A DNA stretch of 64,000 nucleotides from the UHGV virus genome UHGV-0287696; one strand, written 5' to 3'. Source of the stretch: a virus. Shown here piece after piece: positions 8,277-59,309 of this stretch. Under the pieces are notes generated by a model, which searched no databases, was not told the DNA's origin, and was given only the letters and a program-made list of their open reading frames with translations. The translations under genes were made by a program, and so were the position numbers. How positions within the stretch are numbered: the stretch's first letter is position 1; every line of letters starts with the position of its first letter.

Positions 8277-10571
8277 ATGAAAGATACCCGAATCTCTAAT
8301 CTGGAGAAACTCGTACAAGCTGGTAACTCGCTGGTACAAAGCGTCATTAGTAACAACAGTGCTGGCGAAATGTGGAACACCATCGTTGCTGGTGAGTCTG
8401 TACGTAGCAACACGAAAGTTTTTGGTACCCTGCGTGACGATGCTGCACAGCACTACGCAAACGCGTTTGCTGGCGGTAAGAAAATGTCCCACGCTGCGGA
8501 AGTTGCTTCTGCAATGATTCTGGGTGCTGCTGGCCACGGTATGGACCTGCAAGAAAAAGTAGCGCAAGAATACGCTAAGCCAGAATTCCATAGCCGTTTT
8601 AACCTGGACGTTGCGATTCCTGGTTCCCAAGCTGGTAACGGCGACTGGGGCAAAGAGCGTATGGTTGTTGCTCAGGAATACTACACCAACAAAGATTACG
8701 ACAAAAACCTGGGTCTGACCTGGACGCTGAACGTACGTGCTCTGGAAACTCAGTCTCGTTTCGCTGAGACTCTGTTCCCGACCATCACCGTTGACACCAA
8801 CGATGTTGGTATTACCGTACGTACCAAAGTGACCACCGTTTCTCGTGGTGTCATGCACGCGTTACTGACCAAAGACGTTGTTGAAGATCATCGTCGTAAC
8901 CTGCACGAAGCGCTGACCGACCACACCGTTCTCCAGGACGAAGCGATCAACATCGTTCCTTACGTAATGGAAACCGGTGAAAACGCTGAATACTTCGTAA
9001 GCGAAGAACTGGTACCGAACGAATCTGTTCGTCTGGGCCGCGTACCTCCGTACCCGACTAACTACCTGAGCTTTGCTAAAGACACTCTGAACCTGTTCCA
9101 GCTGTCTGCGCATCCGGGTATCGTTCAGGAAGGTTACGACGAAACTGATGAAATCGCACCGGGTTGTGCTCTGGGCAGCCTGCTGATTTCCGTACGTAAA
9201 CCGACCGAAGAAGCGAAAGCAGGTAAATTCATCAAACTGCACGTTCGTGACATGCAGTTCGCAACCTTCCAGCGTCCTGCTGAAGGTGATGGCCGTGAGC
9301 TGGTACTGCAATTCCGTCGTACTGCGTTCTCTCTGAATGCGAAAACCACCGACTGGAAAGGCGAAGCTATTCCGGCACTGAAATCACTGGAACAGAACTC
9401 CTACACCCTGCGTTATGTGATCACCATCAACATGTCTCTGTTCACTACCGGTCAGTTCGGTGGTAAAGTTGACATCGCTGGTCACAAACTGGAAATCGAA
9501 GGTCTGTACGACGCTACTGGTAACAAAGTTGATACCAAATCTGGTACCGGCAAAGTTATCCTGGACGGTCTGAAACTTGAACTGATGGGCTGGCGCTTCG
9601 ATGGTACTCGTACCAACGAAAACCGTCGTACCCAGGGTCTGCTGCTTGACCCAATCTGGGAACAAGAAAACTACAAACTGCAATACGGTTCTCCGATCCT
9701 GACCAAGTCTCCGGTTGGCGTTGAATACGACGATACCGAACGTCTGGACGACCTGATTTCCGCAGTTAACATCCGTAACGAACAGCTGGCTATCACTCAG
9801 ACGCTGTCTTACACCGAAGCGGTACGTAACGCTGCTGCAAGCATGATCACTCCGTGGGACAAACCGGCCATTCGTGGTCTGGGCCGTCACTGGGTTGCTC
9901 CGTGGTTCAAAGAGTCTGACTACAACGTTGATGAAGTTGTACAGTCCCTGGATACCAAAGATGCACTGATCAACGCTCGTCAGGGCCTGGTACAGCGTAT
10001 CGGTAATCAGGTAACTCAGGCTATCCAGGAATCTCGCTTCATTCCTGCGCTGCGTCTGTACACTGCCGATCCGGACATTCTGCCGAAAGTTGTTATTGCA
10101 ACTGACGAACCGACTGCATCTATGCTGCTGCTGGTACAGGGCGACCAACGTCTGCTGGGCGATCGCTACGAATACGAAGTGATCACCACCAACGATGACC
10201 GCTGGCGTATCTACAACGCAGCTGACGGTTCCTGGACTCGTCGTCTGCAATGGTTCCTGAAAGTTCCGACTGCGGACGATGGTTCCTACAACGTGCTGAA
10301 CTGGGGTAACCACTTCTGGTCTCCGATCATGGTTACCAACATCAACATTCAGCGTAACGGTTCTACCTCTAAAGAGCTGGCCGTACAGCCGCGTAACGCG
10401 CACATCTGTCACTGCCCGATCACCGGTCTGATCTGGGTTAAAGGCATCACCAAACTGGTTGAAGAAAAACTGGCTTACAATGTTTCTGTTGAACAGAACG
10501 GTCAGAAACAAACCGAAGGTGGTGTAGCAGGTAACGTTGCTGGCGAAGGCAAAGCTGCTGCTGGTAAGTAA
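8277..10571 (+). CDS. major virion structural protein, most likely major capsid protein (tail sheath not excluded)
   Basis: 764-aa ORF with strongly optimised codons (ctg, cgt, ggt, aaa), strong downstream terminator; size matches the ~750-aa capsid proteins of phiKZ-like phages; no search run. Confidence 0.5.
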   Translation: MKDTRISNLEKLVQAGNSLVQSVISNNSAGEMWNTIVAGESVRSNTKVFGTLRDDAAQHYANAFAGGKKMSHAAEVASAMILGAAGHGMDLQEKVAQEYAKPEFHSRFNLDVAIPGSQAGNGDWGKERMVVAQEYYTNKDYDKNLGLTWTLNVRALETQSRFAETLFPTITVDTNDVGITVRTKVTTVSRGVMHALLTKDVVEDHRRNLHEALTDHTVLQDEAINIVPYVMETGENAEYFVSEELVPNESVRLGRVPPYPTNYLSFAKDTLNLFQLSAHPGIVQEGYDETDEIAPGCALGSLLISVRKPTEEAKAGKFIKLHVRDMQFATFQRPAEGDGRELVLQFRRTAFSLNAKTTDWKGEAIPALKSLEQNSYTLRYVITINMSLFTTGQFGGKVDIAGHKLEIEGLYDATGNKVDTKSGTGKVILDGLKLELMGWRFDGTRTNENRRTQGLLLDPIWEQENYKLQYGSPILTKSPVGVEYDDTERLDDLISAVNIRNEQLAITQTLSYTEAVRNAAASMITPWDKPAIRGLGRHWVAPWFKESDYNVDEVVQSLDTKDALINARQGLVQRIGNQVTQAIQESRFIPALRLYTADPDILPKVVIATDEPTASMLLLVQGDQRLLGDRYEYEVITTNDDRWRIYNAADGSWTRRLQWFLKVPTADDGSYNVLNWGNHFWSPIMVTNINIQRNGSTSKELAVQPRNAHICHCPITGLIWVKGITKLVEEKLAYNVSVEQNGQKQTEGGVAGNVAGEGKAAAGK

Positions 10572-20908: not shown

Positions 20909-21436
20909 ATGGCATATCGTGTCGATTTAACGAAAGCACCTAAACAAATTTTAGTAGACCGGATTAACTACGTATTTAGTCTATCCTATACTGCTGATAA
21001 CATCGAGTTTAACGCAAACGGCGTTCAACCACTAACTTTAGCAGAACGTCAACGTTACGGACTAGAATCAAAGGTTGCTGCCGTCTTCCGTAACGGCGTT
21101 GTCGGAAACCAGGAATTCATTTTAACTCGCGTTGATTTGGCAACGTTCCTGGCCGATGAACCGGTGAGTGTACCGAAAGGCGCAGTAACGTCCAGCGAAG
21201 AGTTGGCTGATTATATCGTTGCACAAACAGGGATTGACCTGCGTGCTGACGACATTATGATTGAGCCGATTTCAGAGGAGCTGGATTCTTATGATGTTCG
21301 TCTCGTCCTGAATCATTTGTCTTTTAAAGGAACGATTCCGGTCGTATTTACTGATTCCACCCCACGCAAATTGGCGTCTCTTGTGACGAAATTGGCGTTG
21401 GATGGGTTCCGCCCAGGAGAATTAATCAATGTCTAA
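20909..21436 (+). CDS. hypothetical protein; possible distant member of recurrent domain family
   Basis: Contains ADYIVAQTGIDLRADDIMIE resembling the DLLxxINxxxGxNLxxxD motif. Confidence 0.45.
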   Translation: MAYRVDLTKAPKQILVDRINYVFSLSYTADNIEFNANGVQPLTLAERQRYGLESKVAAVFRNGVVGNQEFILTRVDLATFLADEPVSVPKGAVTSSEELADYIVAQTGIDLRADDIMIEPISEELDSYDVRLVLNHLSFKGTIPVVFTDSTPRKLASLVTKLALDGFRPGELINV

Positions 21437-41448: not shown

Positions 41449-41492
41449 CCTACCGCCCGATTCTATGGGCGGTAGGTGTTTTTATTTTTTTT
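41449..41492 (+). terminator. intrinsic terminator
   Basis: cctaccgccc-gattctat-gggcggtagg followed by tgtttttattttttttg. Confidence 0.75.
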
Positions 41493-41508
41493 GATCTGGG
41501 AGGTTTTA

Positions 41509-42069
41509 GTGACTACTTACGTACCTGATTTAAGTCTGGCCTCAGCCGAATTAGTGGTCGCTTTAATCAACCACGATAACGGTTCACGGTTGTCTCTAAA
41601 CGAAATCCGTATTAGCAACATTATGGCAAACCCGTCCCCGACCACTTCGCGTCGTAACACACTGACAGAGATTACAAAAATCAGGAAACCTGATGGTGCT
41701 TCTGTGGTTGTTTATTACGACCGTTTGGATGCGGACGAAGTGTTAGCGTCTGAACCTATTTTGATTTCGTTAGACGGTACCGAAGACAACCTTCGTGACA
41801 TTTTAGGTGTTGTAAATGAATTCTGCGGAACGAACTTACAACCCGAAGATTTACGTGCTGCAGATATCACCTTAGGTAACGAACCCATTGCTGTTAACGT
41901 TGCTGACGATTCTCCTGCGTGGATGAATGCGTTTATGGTAACGTTATTCGATACAACCGAACGAGCATTAGCAAACGAAGATGACGCGATCTTCTGTATT
42001 GGTGATGATGCTGTTCTTACTTTTGAGGTTCCAGATGACGACACAGCTGAAGAAAACCCGGCTACATGA
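41509..42069 (+). CDS. tail-associated protein carrying the recurrent anchor-like domain
   Basis: GTG 41509 with GGGAGG RBS; ~160 aa homologous to the C-terminal domain of ORF 47464 (VVALINHD..VVYYDRLDA..DILGVVNEFCGTNLQPEDL..VLTF). Confidence 0.45.
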   Translation: MTTYVPDLSLASAELVVALINHDNGSRLSLNEIRISNIMANPSPTTSRRNTLTEITKIRKPDGASVVVYYDRLDADEVLASEPILISLDGTEDNLRDILGVVNEFCGTNLQPEDLRAADITLGNEPIAVNVADDSPAWMNAFMVTLFDTTERALANEDDAIFCIGDDAVLTFEVPDDDTAEENPAT

Positions 42070-42271
42070 ACTTGACCGTTTTACCGGTAATGGAGGCCAA
42101 CGCAAACTTTTATCAAAACTTAACAATCCCAAATCATGAAGCGCGGAGTTGGGCATCACTTTCACGTTAGAAGATGATGGATTAAAACCAGTATAATAAT
42201 CCGCTTATAAAAATGTTGAGGGGTAAAACACTTCCTCAGATCTTTTAGCTCCCGATAGAGAATTAAATATC

Positions 42272-45200
42272 ATGGCTAAAGCGGTAAAGAAAATTCGTTT
42301 ACACGATTTACGTCCATACACCGGGGATATCGGTGAAGGCGTTTTACTTTTTTCGAAAGACGAAAGGGATTATCAGTTACCTGTCCGCGAGATTGTTGCG
42401 GATATTGACACCGTCAGAAACGCGGTTGCCGACGCACAAACGGCGGCGGCCAAATCGCAACAGTCTGCAACAGAAGCCACACAAGCAAAAGACTTAGCAG
42501 AAACCGCGAAGCAACAAACTGACACGTTAGCTTCCACCGTTAGCGAGCAAGCGGGAACCGTTGCCACTAAAACTGCTGAGGTTAGCAAAAAACACGCTGA
42601 AGTTTTAGCCGCGAAAACTGCCGTAGATACTGTATTACAGTCGGTAAATGAGAAAGCTCAAGCTGTCGCTACAAGCGAACAATCGGTGACGGCTGCAGCG
42701 GCTGATGTAACTAAGAAAGCAGAAACGGTTACGCAACAGGCCGGACAAGTTCAACAGACGGCTACCGGTGTCGAGAATACTGCGGCTTCAGTTGAGGCCA
42801 GTAAGGGCGCAGTGGAGAAGATTGCTGCACAGGTCGCGAAAGATAAAGAAAGTTCAGAAGGCGCAGCAACACGTTCGGAGTCAGCTGCCTTACGTGCGGA
42901 GAAAATCGCTGCGCAGGGCTTAATCGACGCTAGTACAACCGGTAAAGGTATCGTTAAACTTAACGATACACTGACTAGCGAATCCGTGACTGAGGCTGCC
43001 ACACCGTCCACGGTTAAACAGCTGAATGACGAATTACAGTTAAAAGCCAATAAACATTCGCCGAATTTTACGGGTAAACCGTCATCCCCAACACCCCCGA
43101 AAGATTCAAACGACACGAGTATTTCCACAACGGCCTGGGTGCGTGACGCGATTGCGGAACTGGTTGGTTCTTCACCCGAGACGTTAAATACCTTAGCGGA
43201 ATTAGCTGAGGCGTTAGGTAATGACCCTAACTTCGCAACAACGATTACTGGGGAACTTGCGCAGAAACAACCCCTCAGTCCGTTGCTCACCGCCATTGCC
43301 GCAGTCACCACAGCGGCAAACAAACTCATGTATTTCACTGGCAGTAATAAAGTCGGATTAACGGATTTTACAGAAACGGCTAGATCCTTGTTAGCGAAAG
43401 GGTCAACTGCGGATATCATCAATTTCTTGGGATTAAAAGCCACTGTAGATAAAGCGAATAGCGCGTTACAGAAAAACTCTAACGGCGCTGATATCCCAGA
43501 TAAAGAAATGTTTGCTCGCAATATCGGTCTGTCTCCTGACACCTATCTGCGTTTCCGTGGCGAAATGCCAGTAGATGCCGATATTAACACATTTGCTCCT
43601 GATGCCAATTACACAGGAACGTGGGCTAAGTCGACGTCAACCAATGCGTCGATGGCAAAACATTTCCCAGAAGACGGTGCAGTCGGTTATCTGGAAGTGT
43701 ATAAAGCCGGTAATTACAGTGGCGCACAGCGTTTTACCTGCCGTAATGGTAACGTGTACAACCGTATGCTGAGTGGCGCGTGGAATGGTGCCAATGGACC
43801 CTGGTCACCGTGGAGAATGGTAACTACTGGTGTACGTCCGTTATCTACCTCTATAGACTTGAACAGTTTGGGTGGCGCTGAGCATATGGGTAACTGGCGA
43901 AACTCGTCCAGTTCGCTGGCTGTTTTTAGCAGACATTACCCTGAAGAAGGTGGTGGCGCGCAAGGCGTACTAGAAGTAATGGAAGGTGGTCTTTTCGGAC
44001 GGTTGCAACGATACACCACACGTCGTGGTACAATGTATGTCCGTGGTTTGACCGCAACGTGGGATTCATCAAACCCGCAATGGGAAGATTGGATTCAGGT
44101 TGGTTATCAGACTGACGGTGCTTTCTTTAAAGCCAATTTTGACGATCTCGTTAAACCGGGACGTTTCAGTGTCACTGGTGAAGCAACTAATGGTCCACTT
44201 ACCGGTTCTTCTGGTGAAACCATATTAGGCGTTTGTGAAGTTACCTTACGCTTAGACGGTACAGGGGTCGAACAGAATTATACTACATACGGTACGGGTG
44301 TAGAAACTAAAGGTCGTAAATTCCAACGTATCCGTACGGGTAACGCTTGGAGCGATTGGCGCGAGATTTTCACATCATATTCGCTTCCGTTAGTATTAGG
44401 TATAGGCGGTGAACGCGCGAATGTTGATCCTTTAGACTGGCAAACCTATGACTTTAAACCGGGTGAGTTAATCTGTACACCACTTAACACCATGAAAAAC
44501 ATTCCTGCGGGAATGGATTGGGGTGTTATTGACGGTAACTTAGTTAGCATTCTGGTTGGTCCATCAGATGGCGCATCCTCAGGCCGGAGTATGTTGGTTT
44601 GGCGTAGTACGGTGTCTACTGCCAACTATCGATTCTTTGCAGTACGTATCGCCGGTGAGAAAGGTAGTCGTACGATTACACCACGACAGATGCCTGTATT
44701 GAATGCAGCACACACCTGGGCAGAAAAACAGACCTTTGCAAAAGGGTTAGCAGGTGAGTTAACAGGCAATGCTTCAACCGCAACGAAATTAAAGACCGCA
44801 CGTAGAATTGGTGGAGTCGCTTTCGACGGCAGTGGTGATATTAACCTCCCAGGTGTTAACCAACAGGGTAATCAAAACACCACGGGTAATGCCGGTACAG
44901 CCACTAAACTTCAAACCGCCAGAAATATTAACGGTGTGAGGTTCGATGGTTCTGCTGACATCAATATCAACACCCTGGTAGGTCGTGGTCGGGTTACTGC
45001 ACTAACCGGTTCAAACAAAGGTACGCCTGGTATTCAGATGTACGAAGTTTACAATAACGGTTATCCGACCGCTTATGGTAACTTGCTGCATTTGGGCGGT
45101 TCTACTGCATTAGGTGAAGGTGAACTGTTAATCGGTTGGTCGGGCACGAGTGGTGCGCACGCACCCGTTTATATTCGTAGTCGACGTGATACAGCGGATG

Positions 45201-46870
45201 CGCCGTGGTCAGATTGGGCACAAGTTTATACTGCCCGTGATAGTATTCCTGGTGTAAATACCACCGGTAATCAAGATACTACTGGTAACGCTGCTACCGC
45301 GACGAAACTGAAAACTGCTCGCAGAATCGGGGGCGTTACCTTTGACGGTACTGGGGATATCAATTTACCGGGGGTTAACCAGCAAGGTAACCAGAATACG
45401 ACAGGTAATGCAGCAACCGCTACTAAGTTACAAACAGCACGTAAGATCGGCGGTGTTAACTTTGACGGTTCGCAAGACATTAGTCTGCCCGGTGTGAACC
45501 AAACCGGTAACCAATCGACTACGGGGAATGCTGCGACAGCGACTAAGCTCCAGACTGCGCGAAATATAGGTGGCGTAGCTTTTGATGGTACTAAAGACAT
45601 CAACTTACCTGGCGTAAACCAAACGGGTAATCAGTCGACCACCGGAAACGCGGCCACTGCAACAAAATTGCAGACAGCGCGTACCATTAACGGTATCGCA
45701 TTTGACGGCACTAAAAACATCGAAATAACGGCTGAAAGTTTAAATCTTGGTCAAACTGTAGAATTGGCCGGTGGGTCATTGCAGAAGAAACAGAACGGTG
45801 CCGATATTCCAGATAAGAGAAAATTCTTACGAAATGTTGGTGCCGCGAACACAACAACTGTGTCTTTTAATGGTGGTGCCGGATGGTTCAAACTGGCAAC
45901 TGTAACGATGCCGCAAGCCAGTTCCGTGGTTTACATAAGCCTGATTGGTGGTGCAGGGTTTAACGTTGGTTCCCCGCATCAAGCAGGTATCTCTGAGCTG
46001 GTTCTGCGTGCAGGAAATGGGAATCCAAAAGGTATTACTGGTGCGTTATGGCGACTGACTTCAGTCGGCTTCGCTAATTTTGCATGGGTGAATACATCTG
46101 GTGACACTTACGATATTTATGTTGAAATAGGTAATTACGCCACCGGTGTTACTATTCAGTGGGATTACACTAGTAATGCCAACGTAACGATTCATACATC
46201 GCCAAGTTATACGGCTAATAAACCCGCAGGACTAACAGACGGTACCGTCTATCTGATTTACAGCACACACAACAAGCCTAACGCTGGTGACATCGGTGCG
46301 TTACCGTCAGGGGGCGGTACTATAGGTGGCGATTTAACCGTTAACGGTAAATTGGTCACTAAGTACCCTGATTTTCGAATCGCTTACGGCAACTACGGCT
46401 TTATGTTACGTAACGATGGTGCCAATACCTATTTCTTAGTAACCGACGCCGGTCAAGCTGCAACGGGTTCCTGGAACGGTCTACGTCCGTTGTATTTTAA
46501 TAATGCTAACGGTCAAGTAACCTTTGGTCATAACGTTACTGGCAGCGGTAACGGTTCGTTTAACGACGTACAGATTCGTTCTGACCGTCGTAACAAACGT
46601 AATCTGGTGAAACTAGATAAAGCTTTGGATCGGTTAGAGTTACTAACCGGTTATTTGTACGAAATTCAGCATCCTGACGACGGCTGGCAGACCTCTGTAG
46701 GTTTAATTGCCCAAGACGCATTAGAAGCGTTACCTGAACTTGTGTCTGAGGACGACGATGCCATTTCAGGCGAAAAACGTTTACGTCTAAACTACAATGG
46801 CGTTATTGCGCTGTTAGTAGAGGGGATGAAATCCCTTCGCCAAGAGCTTAAAGAGCTTAAGGAGAAATAA
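42272..46870 (+). CDS. tail fibre protein with Ala-rich N-terminal region, ~40-aa tandem repeats and C-terminal S74 intramolecular chaperone domain
   Basis: 1532 aa; repeats NxTGNAATATKLQTARxIGGVxFDGxxDINLPGV about seven times; C-terminus SDRRNKRNLVKLDKALDRLELLTGYLYE...GLIAQDALEALPELV is the classic S74 auto-cleaving chaperone signature. Confidence 0.8.
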   Translation: MAKAVKKIRLHDLRPYTGDIGEGVLLFSKDERDYQLPVREIVADIDTVRNAVADAQTAAAKSQQSATEATQAKDLAETAKQQTDTLASTVSEQAGTVATKTAEVSKKHAEVLAAKTAVDTVLQSVNEKAQAVATSEQSVTAAAADVTKKAETVTQQAGQVQQTATGVENTAASVEASKGAVEKIAAQVAKDKESSEGAATRSESAALRAEKIAAQGLIDASTTGKGIVKLNDTLTSESVTEAATPSTVKQLNDELQLKANKHSPNFTGKPSSPTPPKDSNDTSISTTAWVRDAIAELVGSSPETLNTLAELAEALGNDPNFATTITGELAQKQPLSPLLTAIAAVTTAANKLMYFTGSNKVGLTDFTETARSLLAKGSTADIINFLGLKATVDKANSALQKNSNGADIPDKEMFARNIGLSPDTYLRFRGEMPVDADINTFAPDANYTGTWAKSTSTNASMAKHFPEDGAVGYLEVYKAGNYSGAQRFTCRNGNVYNRMLSGAWNGANGPWSPWRMVTTGVRPLSTSIDLNSLGGAEHMGNWRNSSSSLAVFSRHYPEEGGGAQGVLEVMEGGLFGRLQRYTTRRGTMYVRGLTATWDSSNPQWEDWIQVGYQTDGAFFKANFDDLVKPGRFSVTGEATNGPLTGSSGETILGVCEVTLRLDGTGVEQNYTTYGTGVETKGRKFQRIRTGNAWSDWREIFTSYSLPLVLGIGGERANVDPLDWQTYDFKPGELICTPLNTMKNIPAGMDWGVIDGNLVSILVGPSDGASSGRSMLVWRSTVSTANYRFFAVRIAGEKGSRTITPRQMPVLNAAHTWAEKQTFAKGLAGELTGNASTATKLKTARRIGGVAFDGSGDINLPGVNQQGNQNTTGNAGTATKLQTARNINGVRFDGSADININTLVGRGRVTALTGSNKGTPGIQMYEVYNNGYPTAYGNLLHLGGSTALGEGELLIGWSGTSGAHAPVYIRSRRDTADAPWSDWAQVYTARDSIPGVNTTGNQDTTGNAATATKLKTARRIGGVTFDGTGDINLPGVNQQGNQNTTGNAATATKLQTARKIGGVNFDGSQDISLPGVNQTGNQSTTGNAATATKLQTARNIGGVAFDGTKDINLPGVNQTGNQSTTGNAATATKLQTARTINGIAFDGTKNIEITAESLNLGQTVELAGGSLQKKQNGADIPDKRKFLRNVGAANTTTVSFNGGAGWFKLATVTMPQASSVVYISLIGGAGFNVGSPHQAGISELVLRAGNGNPKGITGALWRLTSVGFANFAWVNTSGDTYDIYVEIGNYATGVTIQWDYTSNANVTIHTSPSYTANKPAGLTDGTVYLIYSTHNKPNAGDIGALPSGGGTIGGDLTVNGKLVTKYPDFRIAYGNYGFMLRNDGANTYFLVTDAGQAATGSWNGLRPLYFNNANGQVTFGHNVTGSGNGSFNDVQIRSDRRNKRNLVKLDKALDRLELLTGYLYEIQHPDDGWQTSVGLIAQDALEALPELVSEDDDAISGEKRLRLNYNGVIALLVEGMKSLRQELKELKEK
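44761..44990 (+). repeat. tandem coding repeats (block 1) within tail fibre gene
   Basis: Two ~120-bp units encoding GNASTATKLKTARRIGGVAFDG.. and GNAGTATKLQTARNINGVRFDG.. Confidence 0.6.
45250..45720 (+). repeat. tandem coding repeats (block 2, about four units of ~120 bp) within tail fibre gene
   Basis: Repeated ggtaa(c/t)ca..ac(c/t)acgggtaatgc.gc.ac.gc.ac.aa..t.ca.ac.gc encoding GNQxTTGNAATATKLQTAR. Confidence 0.65.
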
Positions 46871-46872
46871 AA

Positions 46873-47376
46873 ATGGGGGTAGCATCTGGATGGGTCGGTT
46901 CTTCGGCCAAGAACGAAACGGGCGAACAATGGATGAGCGCTGCTGGTAGTAAATTAGGATTGGGTAGACCTTTTATGATGAGTCAAATGGTGGGACGATC
47001 AATGGGCTGTAAAATTGCAACTGCTGCATATAGCGATTCTTTAGGTAAGAAATGGGGCGCGGTAGGGCCAAGCTGGCCGTTAAACCAGAAAAATCAGGGA
47101 ACCATTCAAAACGCGGGTAACTGCGGGGTGGGAACTTTAGTAGGTATCGAGTTACAGTTAACGACGATAGTTGCTAACGCAAAACCCACTTTAGCGGTTT
47201 ACTTACAAGGTGGGAGAGCCTCTAACATTACCGTAAATTTAGGTGGCAACACTTGTACGCTGACCTATCAGCAGGTTATTAACGGACAGCATTATTACTG
47301 GACTAATAACATCAGCGCTGCGTTCCAAAACGTGATGAAATCAACCGGTACACTGAGAGATTTCAAAATTAGTTAA
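46873..47376 (+). CDS. hypothetical protein downstream of tail fibre (fibre accessory?)
   Basis: 167-aa Gly/Ser-rich ORF starting 3 nt after the fibre stop. Confidence 0.45.
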   Translation: MGVASGWVGSSAKNETGEQWMSAAGSKLGLGRPFMMSQMVGRSMGCKIATAAYSDSLGKKWGAVGPSWPLNQKNQGTIQNAGNCGVGTLVGIELQLTTIVANAKPTLAVYLQGGRASNITVNLGGNTCTLTYQQVINGQHYYWTNNISAAFQNVMKSTGTLRDFKIS

Positions 47377-47463
47377 TTATTTTTCAAGTGGAAGCGCTTG
47401 AAATCGTAATCGGGGGGATGTTTTAAAAGACTTTCTACGTCCCCCTAAACTTAAAGGTGTGTT

Positions 47464-49398
47464 ATGATGTTGGTGCGCGATATTAAAGATTACACCGAAC
47501 TAGCAACATACGCGTTAAATTCGTTGTTAACGCTTGACAAACCAGAAATACTCGACGAATCCGTCACGATAACGGTAGATCAAGAAACGAACTATGATTA
47601 CGTTGGCCAAGTCACTGGTCGTGTTTCTGTAGCTAGTCCCACTGAATATAAAATTGCGATGTATACCTATACAACGGGAGAGTACGCGCAAGGTGAATCA
47701 GCATTAAACGAATCGGGTGAGTTTAATTTTAAACGAACATGGCCGGGGACAAAACAATTTCGTTTAATTAGAATTGCTGATGGCAAATGGATTTCTACGT
47801 TAGAGTTCCCATTGTGCATCCGTAGTTACCATATGCCAGAAAACGCGGACCCTGAAACGATCAGGATTATGAAAGATCGGTGTTATACTTACGATCAGGC
47901 TGTTGCTGCTCTCGCATTAATGGTATACGGTCATGAAAAGGTAGAACAGTTTGTAAAAGGTCTTTTAGCGCTGGTCAATGAAGACGGGGGCGTTAAATTC
48001 TACGTAAACCGACTTTCAGCTAAATCTTCGCGAAATTATTACCGTATGGGTAACGTCGCGTGGGTACTTTACGCTTTAGCTTTTTATCTTGAAAAATTTC
48101 CTGCCGGAAATCTAGCGGCACAGGTTCGTGAAAAATTAACACTTTCCTTAACCTGGCTGGAAACTTACAAGGTAACGCAGGAGACAGATCGCCGCAAAGG
48201 TTTATATCTTGGTGGAAAGGGTCGTTTTGTTACTACCGAATCAGGCGAACGTGTTTTTGAAGAAGACTACGTTGCACCTTTTGCGGCTTTAGAACATCAG
48301 GTAGATATTTGGTTCCTGTTCGAATTACTAGGGCGCGTCGGTTTTGATGCATACCAACAAAAAGCAGCGGACTTCGGTAATAGAATAGTAGAAGCTTTTT
48401 GGATGGAAGACGAAGGACGTTTTCGTCAGGGTGTGAGAGAAACAGAAGATGATAACGCAGCTGCGTTAGATCAGTCCAGTTGGGGTGGGCTATTTGCGGC
48501 CAAATTTAAACCAGAGTACGCCGAACGTTGTCACGCTTTTATGGAGAAATTTCGCTCGGAAACCTCTGAGTGTCGTGGCTACACACCATACAAAACCGAG
48601 TTTGGTTACCCTAATGCTAAAGAAGGGGTGTGGGTTGAAGGTGCCGCCGGTGTTGCATTATTCGAACGTCAGTTAGGAAATGATAAACGTGCTGTTGAGA
48701 TCATTAACGACTTAGATGTTCTTTTATCAGAATACGGTTATCGTGATTCTTGCGATGATCCTACCTATGATACGCTGCCGCCGTGGTGGTCAACCACAAA
48801 CACTGCATGGGTGCTTTTAGTCTGTAAGCCAAGTAATTTTTGGCTTGTAGATAAGTCTCCTTTAACGGAGAGATATAATCCGCAGAATAAATTTTTACCA
48901 GATATTTCATTAAACTCTTTAAATCTTGTAATTTCGTTAGTGAATCACGATTTAAAAACAGATTACACGGAGTCTGATGTTGAAATCAGCAAGATTTCAC
49001 TTAGCACGGAAGAAAATCGTGACACAACAGCGATAATGGAAATAAGACGTCCTAATAAACGGTCGTTACAGATCTATTACAATCGTTTAACCGCAGAGCG
49101 GTGGTTAAACCAGCAACCTATTCTGGTAAAGGTCACCGGTAATGGTTTTACTACTCGCGATCTGATCGACGGAATTAATGCGGTCTGTGGTAGTAATTTA
49201 CAAGCCGACGATCTTACCGATAAAACATTTACCGTAGGGAGGGACGCTGTAACATTACAAGTTTCACCCAACTCGCTAGGTTATAAAGGCCAATTCTCCG
49301 TTCTGGTTTTCGGTAACGATGAAGAAGCCGCAGTAACAAAAGACAACGATTTAATCGTTACTGCAGATAACCGTGTCTTAACATTCGGAGGTCACTAA
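47464..49398 (+). CDS. tail-associated protein with glycosidase-like central region and C-terminal recurrent domain (putative depolymerase-type protein)
   Basis: 644 aa; central TYDQAVAALALMVYG...WVLYALAFYLEKF...WGGLFAAKF suggests an alpha-helical toroid glycosidase fold (inference); C-terminal 160 aa homologous to ORF 41509. Confidence 0.4.
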   Translation: MMLVRDIKDYTELATYALNSLLTLDKPEILDESVTITVDQETNYDYVGQVTGRVSVASPTEYKIAMYTYTTGEYAQGESALNESGEFNFKRTWPGTKQFRLIRIADGKWISTLEFPLCIRSYHMPENADPETIRIMKDRCYTYDQAVAALALMVYGHEKVEQFVKGLLALVNEDGGVKFYVNRLSAKSSRNYYRMGNVAWVLYALAFYLEKFPAGNLAAQVREKLTLSLTWLETYKVTQETDRRKGLYLGGKGRFVTTESGERVFEEDYVAPFAALEHQVDIWFLFELLGRVGFDAYQQKAADFGNRIVEAFWMEDEGRFRQGVRETEDDNAAALDQSSWGGLFAAKFKPEYAERCHAFMEKFRSETSECRGYTPYKTEFGYPNAKEGVWVEGAAGVALFERQLGNDKRAVEIINDLDVLLSEYGYRDSCDDPTYDTLPPWWSTTNTAWVLLVCKPSNFWLVDKSPLTERYNPQNKFLPDISLNSLNLVISLVNHDLKTDYTESDVEISKISLSTEENRDTTAIMEIRRPNKRSLQIYYNRLTAERWLNQQPILVKVTGNGFTTRDLIDGINAVCGSNLQADDLTDKTFTVGRDAVTLQVSPNSLGYKGQFSVLVFGNDEEAAVTKDNDLIVTADNRVLTFGGH

Positions 49399-50018
49399 TG
49401 GCTGAACTGGTAGGAAAGGTACGCGTTCACGAACTGCCGACACTTTCAGAAGACGTCACAGGTGTAGTCGTCTTAGCGTCTAAAGAACAAACTGAATACC
49501 AACTCCCGATTGAAAAATTAGGGGGTGGTGAGGTTACAGTGAGTCCGTCGGCGAATAACATCCTTAAGTCTAACAGTGATGGGTTGTTTGTTAATGGTGC
49601 GCACCCGATTGTACCAAAAATAGATGCAAAAACCGTATCGGGAAATATGGTAGTAGAAAAAACGTTGACGGGTGGTGCGGTAATCTGCAAAACAACGGTT
49701 GACGTTAATAACAGGCTGGGTGTTACGCAATTATCAGGGGTATCAATTTATAGCCAGTGTCTGTTGGAAAATAAATTGGTTTACCTGGCAGCAGATGGTG
49801 GTATTATTGATGCGTACTTCTACGTTAGTGGTACAAAAACCACAGCGAGTACAATAACCCACACCATTCGTGTTGTTTTAGCGAAGGTACCCTCTAAAGT
49901 TGTCGATATCACCGATTTGTCTGAAACCGAAGTACAATACGAGAATAGTAATTTACCTGTTAAGATCGTTATTAAACATCTTGCAGGGACAACACTTTCT
50001 CAGAACGGAATGAAATAA
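49398..50018 (+). CDS. tail fibre-related protein sharing the N-terminal domain of the large fibre
   Basis: MAELVGKVRVHELPTLSEDVTGVVVLASKEQTEYQLPIEKL aligns with fibre N-terminus MAKAVKKIRLHDLRPYTGDIGEGVLLFSKDERDYQLPVREI. Confidence 0.5.
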   Translation: MAELVGKVRVHELPTLSEDVTGVVVLASKEQTEYQLPIEKLGGGEVTVSPSANNILKSNSDGLFVNGAHPIVPKIDAKTVSGNMVVEKTLTGGAVICKTTVDVNNRLGVTQLSGVSIYSQCLLENKLVYLAADGGIIDAYFYVSGTKTTASTITHTIRVVLAKVPSKVVDITDLSETEVQYENSNLPVKIVIKHLAGTTLSQNGMK

Positions 50019-50024
50019 ATTTTA

Positions 50025-50069
50025 GGTAGTAGGGGCTAAGCCCCTACTACCTTTCTTTTTTTATTTTTT
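50025..50069 (+). terminator. intrinsic terminator
   Basis: ggtagtaggggc-taa-gcccctactacc followed by a ~18-nt T-rich tract. Confidence 0.75.
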
Positions 50070-57318: not shown

Positions 57319-58167
57319 ATGTCTCTTACGTCAAAACAGAAACTGCTAAAACTCATCAACACTGAAAACAATATTGTTCCGCCATTGACCTTCAGTGATG
57401 TTGATATCGGCGAACCTACTGGTACTGGGGTTGATACCCAGGTGGTTCTGACTTCTAAACTCAAAGGCGATGAGTCTACTACTTTAACTGTGACTTATCA
57501 TCGTCGTAATTTGCCCGAATACCTAACAGGTGAGTTGGTATTCGGTAACGATGGTGTTGTAACCGCTACAGATTTGCTTAATGCAATCAACGCAAAATAC
57601 GATTTAAATATCCTGCCGTCGGATATCGTTGATGCGAAAGTTGAAGGTGAAACCCATCAGCTTACCGCTAACGAGAAATCCTACGAATGGTGTGGCGAGG
57701 TGACACTTACGCTACGCGACCCTATTGATTTGGCTAAACTGTTACCTGTTACTCAATTAGAAAACCTGGTAGAGTATCCGTCCACTAAGAAAGGTAACGC
57801 AGCGGTTTATTCTTATCCAATTGACTTCACCGCAGAAAAAGATTACCTCGATCCGATTACCATTAACGACACTGTCGACCTGGCTGAGTTAGCCACTAAA
57901 CTGGTCAACGTCGTTGATGAGAAATGGGTAAGTGTACCTAAAAACGCTGCTAATAACCTCTACGGTGCTAAGGTTATCTACGATGGCCCTACCGCAGGTT
58001 ACGAAGGCGCAAATACGAAGTACACGCGTGTGCTGGTACTCGCACTCAGTGGACTGTGTGCTAACCTGACCGGTAATCTGTTAATCCACTTTAACGGTAC
58101 CGATCGTCCGAAGTCGAAGATTGAATTAGCTAAAACTAATTCGGTCTTACCGGGATTCTTAGATTAA
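57319..58167 (+). CDS. virion-type protein, member of recurrent domain family
   Basis: N-terminal LLKLINTENNIVPPLTFSDVDIGEP..VDTQVVLTSK..TVTYHRRNL..DLLNAINAKYDLNILPSDIVD matches the family signature. Confidence 0.5.
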   Translation: MSLTSKQKLLKLINTENNIVPPLTFSDVDIGEPTGTGVDTQVVLTSKLKGDESTTLTVTYHRRNLPEYLTGELVFGNDGVVTATDLLNAINAKYDLNILPSDIVDAKVEGETHQLTANEKSYEWCGEVTLTLRDPIDLAKLLPVTQLENLVEYPSTKKGNAAVYSYPIDFTAEKDYLDPITINDTVDLAELATKLVNVVDEKWVSVPKNAANNLYGAKVIYDGPTAGYEGANTKYTRVLVLALSGLCANLTGNLLIHFNGTDRPKSKIELAKTNSVLPGFLD

Positions 58168-58180
58168 GAGGATTACAGTA

Positions 58181-58657
58181 ATGACCAGTCAAGAAACTAT
58201 CTTCGACCTTATTAAAAAGGCTAACCCAGACGCTGAGCTCGACACCGCCAAAGTTACATTGGGTGAGCCCGTCGTAAGTACCGGTGCGTACAACACCGAA
58301 GTTACGGTTGCGTCAATTAAGAATCTCGGTTATGCTAATAAGCAAACGTTCCAGTATAACCGCATTGATGCAGGTTTGTATTTCCTCAACGTATTGCCGA
58401 AACTGTTAGTTGAATCAGCAACTACGACTGCGGACCTGTTGCCTGTAATTAACGAACAATATGGCTTAACCCTTACTGAAGACGACGTATGGGTAGAGCA
58501 GGTTGGTGAGTTACCGCTGGACGGCAGTACAATCGAGCACGGCATTTTCTTCCGTCCTGAGTGCCTAACCTGGGTCGGTGGTTTTACAGTGCGCGTTGCG
58601 CGTAAGCCGACTGTTGAAACACCGCCAGCTAATCCATCGCGCGCTAAGAAGAAATAA
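58181..58657 (+). CDS. virion-type protein, member of recurrent domain family
   Basis: IFDLIKKANPDAELDTAKVTLGEP..NTEVTVASIK..FQYNRIDAG..DLLPVINEQYGLTLTEDDVWV. Confidence 0.5.
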   Translation: MTSQETIFDLIKKANPDAELDTAKVTLGEPVVSTGAYNTEVTVASIKNLGYANKQTFQYNRIDAGLYFLNVLPKLLVESATTTADLLPVINEQYGLTLTEDDVWVEQVGELPLDGSTIEHGIFFRPECLTWVGGFTVRVARKPTVETPPANPSRAKKK

Positions 58658-58718: not shown

Positions 58719-59309
58719 ATGGCCGAACGTTGGACTAAAGAAGGTATTATTGCTTCGAAAACAGATTTAGAAGGCGGGTACGTAAACGACCCTGACGATA
58801 AAGGTGGGGAAACCTGTCACGGTGTAACACTAACAACTGCGCGCGAATACGGGTATAAAGGAAGAATGAAGGATCTGACCCGTGCGCAAGCGTTTGATAT
58901 TTACGATCGCGGTTGGTGGAAGAAACTTAAACTCGATGAGATTTTAGCTATCTCACCCTTACTCGCAGACCGGATGTTTGATTTTGCTATTAACTCTGGC
59001 CGCGTTAACTGCGTGAAATCGTTACAACGTATTCTCAACGTTTTAAATAACGAAGGGAAACTTTACGCAGATATTGACACCGACGGCGGTATGGGACCTA
59101 AAACGCTAGGTGCCCTGAATGCTTATCTGAATTACCGTAAAGACGAAGGATTAGGCATCTTAATCTTTGCCTTAATCTCACACCAGGTAACTTACTACAC
59201 AGAAATCTCCGAAAAGCGTAAGAAGAATGAAAAATTCGCTTACGGCTGGTACGCACGTGTGTTCAGGGAAATGCCGGATTATGTGGCGAAGGCGGGGTTA
59301 GTAAAATGA
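58719..59309 (+). CDS. endolysin, GH108-type N-terminal domain plus peptidoglycan-binding domain
   Basis: EGGYVNDPDDKGGETCHGVT is the GH108 signature (catalytic Glu in EGGY); C-terminal ...DTDGGMGPKTLGALNAYL resembles PG_binding_3; RBS AGAGGAG. Confidence 0.8.
   Translation: MAERWTKEGIIASKTDLEGGYVNDPDDKGGETCHGVTLTTAREYGYKGRMKDLTRAQAFDIYDRGWWKKLKLDEILAISPLLADRMFDFAINSGRVNCVKSLQRILNVLNNEGKLYADIDTDGGMGPKTLGALNAYLNYRKDEGLGILIFALISHQVTYYTEISEKRKKNEKFAYGWYARVFREMPDYVAKAGLVK

Follow-up and report, generated by a model that had tools for sequence, protein, structure and literature searches.

A tail-fibre head with a predicted (alpha/alpha)6 barrel fused to a C-terminal DUF7941 module in an uncultured jumbo phage

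A gene in a 64,000-nucleotide stretch of the virus genome UHGV-0287696 (the whole stretch is called the window here) was found to encode a tail-fibre head module of predicted sugar-enzyme fold that is followed, after five joining residues, by a C-terminal DUF7941 module. The whole fused gene lies on the plus strand at 47464..49398 (stop codon included) and encodes 644 amino acids (aa), with the two modules joined end to end and both under purifying selection. The product is probably a virion-displayed accessory protein that binds or degrades polysaccharide, in which the tail-fibre head is carried on a DUF7941 anchor. The open reading frame (ORF) was exactly as given in the original prediction for this DNA, with an ATG start, a ribosome-binding site (RBS) and a TAA stop, and the strings quoted there were mapped to aa 140-146 (CYTYDQA), aa 196-201 (GNVAWV) and aa 335-342 (LDQSSWGG). 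The RBS, read from the sequence, is a Shine-Dalgarno-like AGGTG on the plus strand (47455..47459) positioned 4 nt ahead of the ATG. The TAA stop shares 1 nt with the ATG of a 206-aa gene (TAATG), an overlap through which the two genes may possibly be translationally coupled, and this two-gene pair is followed by a bidirectional intrinsic-terminator-like hairpin (50024..50052) that has a perfect 13-bp stem, is flanked by T-runs on both strands and is kept in relatives. These expression signals (the RBS, the stop/start overlap and the terminator after the next gene) count for a functional fused gene.

Fold and relatives of the head module

The head (aa 1-471) was modelled with AlphaFold2 (AF2) on a 100-sequence family alignment, and structural matches to the model were identified by Foldseek. 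The predicted local distance difference test (pLDDT) score was about 97 over aa 10-470, with (i) a helix at aa 10-23; (ii) a beta-sandwich domain at aa 35-114 (47566..47805, plus strand; pLDDT 96-98); and (iii) 12 helices within aa 130-454 (47851..48825, plus strand), which are arranged in the model as a six-hairpin (alpha/alpha)6 double barrel. Foldseek matches to glycoside hydrolase (GH) structures of families GH78, GH100 and GH63 were obtained at E-values of 1e-9 to 1e-5. The best of these, to the GH78 rhamnosidase 4xhc, extended over 521 aligned columns, which exceeds the barrel alone and probably takes in the beta-sandwich of 4xhc. According to the model, the head is a beta-sandwich followed by a six-hairpin (alpha/alpha)6 barrel, the layout of bacterial GH15/GH78-type enzymes. 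The (alpha/alpha)6-barrel fold that had been guessed in the original prediction was thus borne out by the AF2 model and the Foldseek GH matches. That prediction had also tied its glycosidase reading to hits of CAZy or six-hairpin type, of which the six-hairpin kind was obtained as structural matches and no CAZy-type sequence family was matched. Identity in the structural matches to six-hairpin enzymes was only 8-15%, as found for the MmpH endo-alpha-mannosidase (7qsj), GH15 glucoamylase/glucodextranase, GH76, GH63, GH100, GH78 and the AGE epimerases, and no family profile was reached at threshold. The top structural matches also included cellobiose 2-epimerases, mannose and sulfoquinovose isomerases, dextran dextrinase (a transglycosylase) and phosphorylases, and weak PDB profile matches were to other alpha/alpha proteins (e.g., terpene cyclases and cellobiose epimerase).

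Few proteins in the viral structure library were found to share the fold of the head (a handful). Classical tailspikes and depolymerases are trimeric beta-helices or beta-propellers, whereas the fused head is an alpha/alpha toroid as judged by AF2 and Foldseek. Such toroids are rare (about 1%) among predicted phage depolymerases, with 11 of 984 in the DepoScope survey drawn from INPHARED (PMC11326577) and 29 of about 3,900 in a survey of Klebsiella prophages (PMC12491483); both data sets are predictions and include neither the head family nor a chimallivirus context.

Conservation within the family was examined at two depths. Twelve positions were near-invariant in the 100-sequence alignment (Y143, G196, G251, E277, H278, D281, L335, D336, W340, E392, G393 and W449), and D281 and D144 were highly conserved in the head family. 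Among 70 distant relatives at about 22% identity, three acidic residues were invariant, corresponding to E277, D336 and E392 of the query. The conserved positions were mostly at or near the N-terminal ends of helices 2, 4, 6, 8, 10 and 12, with G251 in a strand instead. In a fold of this type these helix ends would meet at one mouth of the barrel, so that the conserved residues would line a pocket. Overall, the head family looks like a family of sugar-acting enzymes, for which hydrolysis appears to be the most likely chemistry.

The closest relatives of the head point to tail fibres of temperate phages. The C-terminal ends of the PHROG tail fiber families 13714, 7032 and 4128 were found to align to aa 7-471 (E-values 2.8e-181, 1.8e-146 and 3.3e-50, respectively), and a 5.8-billion-protein collection yielded more than 90 prophage proteins as closest relatives, 45-60% identical over aa 5-470, that are tail-fibre proteins of prophages in E. 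coli, Citrobacter, Salmonella and Yersinia. With an exhaustive HMMER search over 1.84 billion cluster representatives, the family grew to 474 relatives at E-values up to 0.001. The names and classes of the closest relatives, together with the PHROG families, support a tail-fibre link for the virion-borne enzyme of the original prediction. Relatives among cultured phages included an Stx2k prophage 'tail protein' and Asteriusvirus ph0011, and more distant ones were minor tail proteins of Microbacterium phages and proteins of Thermus jumbo phages; no chimallivirus was present among the tblastn matches of the head in the phage collection. The prophage fibre heads (e.g., the tail protein of Escherichia phage phiSTEC1575-Stx2k and WAE77027.1 of Asteriusvirus ph0011) have the same helix, beta-sandwich and barrel as the fused head, and the same conserved residues; a look for activities established by experiment turned up none among these hits.

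Domain order sets the fused protein apart from these fibres. In most relatives the head is C-terminal and stands behind an N-terminal anchor (PF08400, PF12571, PF18668 or PF03406), and a few consist of the head alone (482-494 aa), whereas in the fused protein the head comes first and DUF7941 last. Only aa 1-4 precede the head, such that an N-terminal particle-binding anchor was not encountered and the anchor-type module is C-terminal instead. The N-terminal helix (aa 10-23; 47491..47532, plus strand), at which the imported head starts in the AF2 model, aligns with the segment that follows the anchors of the prophage fibres. At the other end, the natural C-terminus of the head (..RY; ..LTERY here) coincides with the end of the prophage homologues, which then have a stop codon, and neither DUF7941 nor any other domain was found behind the head in the prophage relatives. 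Judged from these alignments, the head was probably taken from a pool of enterobacterial temperate-phage tail-fibre heads. Literature searches on six-hairpin folds and tail fibres returned nothing about the head family, and those on PF08400 returned only a paper about prophage proteins of collagen-like type. EP335 gp13 (PMC8217332) was considered as a literature lead and rejected, as it is a different, T4 gp12-like fibre.

The DUF7941 module and the history of the fusion

The C-terminal part of the protein was matched by the Pfam family DUF7941 (PF25613) over aa 482-616 (51.9 bits compared with a cut-off of 27, E-value 1e-13), covering profile positions 5-152 of 276; profile positions 153-276, which represent the DUF7941 C-domain, had no Pfam match in the fused protein. 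DUF7941's globular domain at the N-terminus was delimited to aa 477-617 (48892..49314, plus strand). A DUF7941 profile of the phage group matched PHIKZ127 (PDB 9xqd chain 0) at residues 16-158 with an E-value of 1.2e-9. An AF2 model of aa 471-644 (m3a5bd55700b7) gave block-mean pLDDT values that were mostly 73-92 over aa 480-617, with two blocks at 55-64. The remaining residues (aa 618-644; 49315..49395, plus strand) form a C-terminal tail of low confidence (pLDDT < 50) that ends in ..DNRVLTFGGH. The closest paralog in the window ends in ..VLTFEVP, and a VLTF motif is thus common to both. Overall, aa 477-644 constitute a complete short-form DUF7941 protein made of a globular N-domain and a flexible tail, similar to Goslar gp23, and the tail is a candidate for the DUF7941 'linker' that docks on the next protomer.

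The original prediction had described a recurrent domain with an anchoring role. The domain is real: it is DUF7941, which was detected in the fused protein and in four further proteins of the window, all encoded on the plus strand. The closest paralog (197 aa; 41476..42069; phmmer E-value 3e-30, Pfam E-value 4e-19) lies just upstream of a 1532-aa fibre gene; a gene pair encodes a full-length protein of 282 aa and a short one of 158 aa (57319..58167 and 58181..58657; Pfam E-values 1e-53 and 1e-29); and a fifth DUF7941 protein of 175 aa (20909..21436) was found by homology and Pfam searches. The pair at 57319..58657 is laid out as Goslar gp22/gp23, which are abundant filament subunits in that phage, and it directly precedes an endolysin-type gene with GH108 and PG_binding_3 domains (58719..59309). 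The anchor reading is backed by homology to phiKZ gp127 and by the presence of DUF7941 proteins in Goslar virions.

A recent preprint describes DUF7941 as chimallivirus-specific and reports that Goslar virions contain DUF7941 proteins by mass spectrometry, including gp22 (full-length) and gp23 (short) at hundreds to thousands of copies per virion (bioRxiv 10.64898/2026.04.21.720040). The same work found that purified Goslar gp22 makes filaments, for which a head-to-tail AlphaFold model places the linker of one protomer on the N-domain of the next, with such filaments proposed to sit on the baseplate, and it lists phiKZ gp127 as part of the outer peripheral baseplate and Goslar gp86, gp92 and gp161 as proteins in which an N-terminal DUF7941 is followed by carbohydrate-binding module (CBM), GH or leucine-rich repeat (LRR) domains (bioRxiv 10.64898/2026.04.21.720040). 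These last three proteins resemble the fused protein in that they belong to Chimalliviridae, contain DUF7941 (PF25613) and place a carbohydrate-directed effector on a baseplate or filament module. The order is reversed, however: DUF7941 is N-terminal and the effector comes after it in the Goslar proteins, while the fused protein has its effector at aa 1-471 and then a C-terminal short-form DUF7941. Stand-alone proteins of phiKZ (gp127 and gp126) and SPN3US (YP_009153416) are homologous to the C-terminal 170 aa (about 31% identity to SPN3US) but are small and have no N-terminal extension; the fused gene and these stand-alone genes share a position just upstream of tail-fibre genes. The view of domain order obtained from a homologue search with the DUF7941 alignment and from an IMG/VR scan comprised same-group orthologues and close relatives only. 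A match to phrog_20090 through profile positions 220-315 of 354 hints that DUF7941 is placed away from the N-terminus elsewhere.

For the C-terminal part, all of the closest relatives (63-83% identical) were proteins of about 171 aa that stand alone. Syntenic phages of about 222-226 kb carry the stand-alone 171-aa DUF7941 gene at the site of the fused gene, with a gene order of DUF7941 (186 aa), fibre (about 1480 aa, with an S74 chaperone), one or two gp38-like adhesins, DUF7941 (171 aa) and then genes of 206, 283, 147 and 171 aa. When the fused locus was compared with unfused loci by blastn (against the relatives L003, L004 and L005), a mosaic block at 47397..49015 (plus strand) was found to have no DNA similarity to them, while identity was about 95% up to 47396 and again from 49016. 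This replaced block comprises the hairpin region, the whole head and the first ~40 DUF7941 codons, and its 1619 bases stand where L003 has 201 bases. The left breakpoint falls in the intergenic region 47377..47463, which folds as two hairpins (-27.5 kcal/mol, z -3.6) and at which relatives likewise have a G-run followed by a C-run in a different sequence; the right breakpoint falls within the DUF7941 gene.

The fusion junction, NPQNK (aa 472-476; 48877..48891, plus strand), lies between the ..RY end of the head and residue 4 of the stand-alone DUF7941 proteins (F[L/V]PD..), and by alignment it is exact, with both modules preserved to the residue. Within the DUF7941 part, aa 536-644 were 100% identical to the protein P0242, compared with 52% (32/61) for aa 475-535. 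Because aa 475-535 belong to a diverged allele, the fused cassette with its diverged 5′ DUF7941 part was imported by recombination. A de novo fusion within UHGV-0287696 was ruled out on the same ground, as the first ~60 residues of DUF7941 come from that diverged allele.

The fused form was recovered as one 90% cluster of 52 protein variants of 643 or 644 aa, which originated from Logan, ENA, NCBI and JGI, with contigs as long as 226 kb. Two fused sublineages (644 aa and 643 aa) share about 91% identity in the head and have an identical junction, and the fused allele was found in differing backgrounds, with or without the downstream 206-aa gene. Ratios of nonsynonymous to synonymous substitution rates (dN/dS) relative to the 643-aa allele of L007 came to 0.13 in the head, to 0.11 in the barrel within it and to 0.14 in the DUF7941 part; both halves are under purifying selection in the fused state, and both matter. 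The fused allele probably arose once and spreads among related phages by recombination, with one crossover in the hairpin-forming intergenic stretch upstream and a second one within the DUF7941 gene.

Gene neighbourhood and phage type

The fused gene is part of a tail-fibre cluster. Upstream, the DUF7941 paralog at 41476 is followed by the 1532-aa fibre gene (42272..46870) and a 167-aa gp38-like gene (46873..47376) that has only the Gp38_N domain (PF21721) of T2/T6-type adhesins; in relatives a full Gp38 gene is present as well. At its end the fibre has a Gp34-type trimerisation domain and an S74 chaperone, an unusual mix of T4-like parts for a chimallivirus. At 45271..45721 the fibre gene contains internal repeat units of about 100-120 bp encoding ..TTGNAATATKLQTAR..GG..FDG.., and a 110-aa minus-strand ORF within this repeat region (45271..45603) is probably not a gene. 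Downstream, the 206-aa gene (49398..50018, plus strand), which overlaps the fused gene by 1 nt, adjoins the DUF7941 gene in relatives too. Over its first 41 aa the 206-aa protein shared 39% identity with the 1532-aa fibre's N-terminus (E-value 8e-8), so that a 41-residue N-terminal motif is shared between 42272..42394 and 49398..49520. The 1532-aa fibre gene and the 206-aa gene each come after a small DUF7941 gene, and the order in SPN3US is alike (L001, 9031..13055), with a small DUF7941 protein followed by a 'tail fiber protein' and a 'tail protein'. These sequence data suggest a conserved adaptor-fibre pairing between a DUF7941 gene and the gene that follows it, in which the small DUF7941 proteins may be baseplate-peripheral adaptors or chain subunits beside the fibres. 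If so, the fused protein would put a carbohydrate-active head on that scaffold. The region 41476..50052 is a mosaic hot spot among the relatives L003-L007, with flanks that are about 90-95% identical. Within the hot spot these relatives vary in the number of gp38-like genes (one or two), in carrying or lacking the 206-aa and 283-aa genes, in an additional tail protein of 1001 aa and in a DUF7941 gene that is either fused or unfused.

The major capsid protein of the window (8277..10571, 764 aa) was about 80% identical to those of the Erwinia phages Asesino and phiEaH2 and of Salmonella phage SPN3US, and it matched 227 phiKZ-like records. Other large ORFs of the window fell into PHROG families of major head, virion structural and internal head proteins, a DnaB-like helicase and a polymerase, a profile that is consistent with a large myovirus. 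Because of the major capsid identity, the PHROG families and the large-contig relatives, we assign the window to an uncultured SPN3US/Asesino-like member of Chimalliviridae with a predicted genome of about 225 kb. No close DNA-level match to the window or the fused gene was found in the cultured-phage collection, and near-identity DNA searches of E. coli complete genomes and PLSDB matched only the conserved 3′ DUF7941 part of the gene. Many assemblies from read archives and metagenomes, and also assemblies of Salmonella, Shigella and E. coli isolates, were found to contain phages of the same type as contigs of 221-226 kb. Genomes of the group of about 222 kb are on record as circular 'plasmids' belonging to complete bacterial genomes (L006, NZ_CP173450.1; H54, NZ_CP134650.1), with E. 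coli 98232 from urine and Enterobacter ludwigii from a gull as the bacteria bearing such plasmid-labelled phage genomes. These records suggest that isolates harbour a nucleus-forming jumbo phage in a carrier state or by pseudolysogeny.

Function, competing explanations and significance

For a virion-displayed protein, the two modules would divide the work as follows: the DUF7941 part would insert the protein in the baseplate or a filament array, perhaps along with the fibre-like 206-aa protein, and the barrel pocket with E277, D336 and E392 would bind, and most likely also cleave, a polysaccharide on the host surface (an O-antigen, a capsule or the like). Binding or cleavage would aid adsorption on particular host serotypes. 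A number of points weigh against this proposal. On the side of the head, no curated glycosidase family was matched in Pfam, NCBIfam or PDB sequence and profile searches; Pfam matches among the 70 distant relatives were sub-threshold only (MGH1-like_GH in 4/70, best E-value 0.001; GH127 in 1/70), although these faint matches point towards a sugar enzyme; the pocket position of the carboxylates was deduced from helix ends and not from superposition on known catalytic residues; and sugar epimerases and isomerases, terpene cyclases and thioester domains have the same fold and occur among the matches. On the side of display, the virion location of the fused protein is a deduction, every other known case has the effector behind the anchor, a large head right before the DUF7941 N-domain could obstruct its docking surface, trimers are common among fibre heads whereas the model of DUF7941 is a monomer chain, and the filament model comes from one preprint based on AlphaFold and negative stain of one protein.

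These reservations open several alternatives. The head may be a non-catalytic, lectin-like receptor-binding domain, such that the fused protein is a pure adhesin on a DUF7941 scaffold. We regard this as rather unlikely. Phage receptor-binding proteins often bind without cleaving, the lack of a curated GH match (as searched above) fits, and the neighbouring genes encode adhesins and not enzymes (gp38-like, 46873..47376; fibre, 42272..46870); yet three carboxylates, several tryptophans and a histidine stay invariant or nearly so at about 22% identity, a pattern that fits an active site better than a binding surface that varies, and the best structural matches of the head are enzymes. Less probable is a barrel with another sugar chemistry, as an AGE-like epimerase or isomerase, a lyase, a phosphorylase or a transglycosylase that modifies the host glycan. 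This chemistry would be in keeping with the epimerases, isomerases, dextran dextrinase and phosphorylases among the top structural matches and with the near-invariance of H278. AGE enzymes, however, act on free small sugars in the cytoplasm, a poor fit to a tail-fibre head, and use two catalytic histidines, while a single histidine is conserved in the head and the three invariant carboxylates suit the acid/base catalysis of a glycosidase.

A location outside the virion, either as a soluble enzyme released at lysis or as an intracellular one with DUF7941 as a passenger of the insertion, is quite improbable: although no DUF7941 effector protein is known to have the reversed order, the fused DUF7941 part is complete and evolves under purifying selection (dN/dS 0.14), the junction keeps both modules to the residue, and the gene overlaps a fibre-like gene inside the tail-fibre cluster. 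The chance of an artefactual long ORF, be it a chimera of the assembly, two genes joined through a sequencing frameshift or a decaying pseudogene, is close to nil. The stand-alone 171-aa form seems more widespread (48 clusters compared with 1 fused) and the cultured-phage collection holds no near DNA match, but the 52 variants come from independent samples and sources, sublineages diverged by about 9% have one junction, and an RBS is present. An assembly or frameshift artefact was thus effectively ruled out, and a pseudogene with it, because of the 52 variants, the shared junction and the low dN/dS.

A tentative and somewhat doubtful extension of virion display is that the polarity of display is reversed in the filaments. 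Because the DUF7941 N-domain, on which a neighbour's tail would dock, and the protein's own tail are both intact, the fused protein could, speculatively, be incorporated as an internal subunit of the chain and not just at its end, giving enzyme-studded and possibly micron-long filaments that surround the baseplate. Under the same proposal, chimalliviruses could capture ready-made receptor-binding heads of temperate-phage tail fibres by a single in-frame insertion ahead of a small DUF7941 gene, and the cassette could then move among related jumbo phages by recombination within the DUF7941 gene.

The combination of DUF7941 with a carbohydrate-directed domain has already been described in Goslar, and the shuffling of modules in receptor-binding proteins is well known, such that the fusion as such is not startling. 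What is new is the reversed domain order, the temperate-phage tail-fibre origin of the head and the presence/absence polymorphism among nearly identical jumbo phages; the original prediction had noticed neither the order nor the mosaic, polymorphic nature of the gene nor the import of its head. Host recognition by nucleus-forming jumbo phages is poorly understood, and a DUF7941 'fibre cloud' was proposed only in 2026. The locus amounts to a natural experiment, in which phages of about 225 kb with flanks about 95% identical do or do not carry a 470-aa head on one DUF7941 gene; fused and unfused phages would allow a direct test of whether DUF7941 proteins carry host-range determinants. The finding also indicates that heads for receptor binding pass between lambdoid-type prophages, which are temperate, and strictly lytic chimalliviruses. 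The head family, with its more than 470 cluster representatives, predicted (alpha/alpha)6 barrel and three invariant carboxylates, stands outside Pfam and NCBIfam, and is a candidate for a new glycoside hydrolase family as well as a candidate module for phage host-range engineering.

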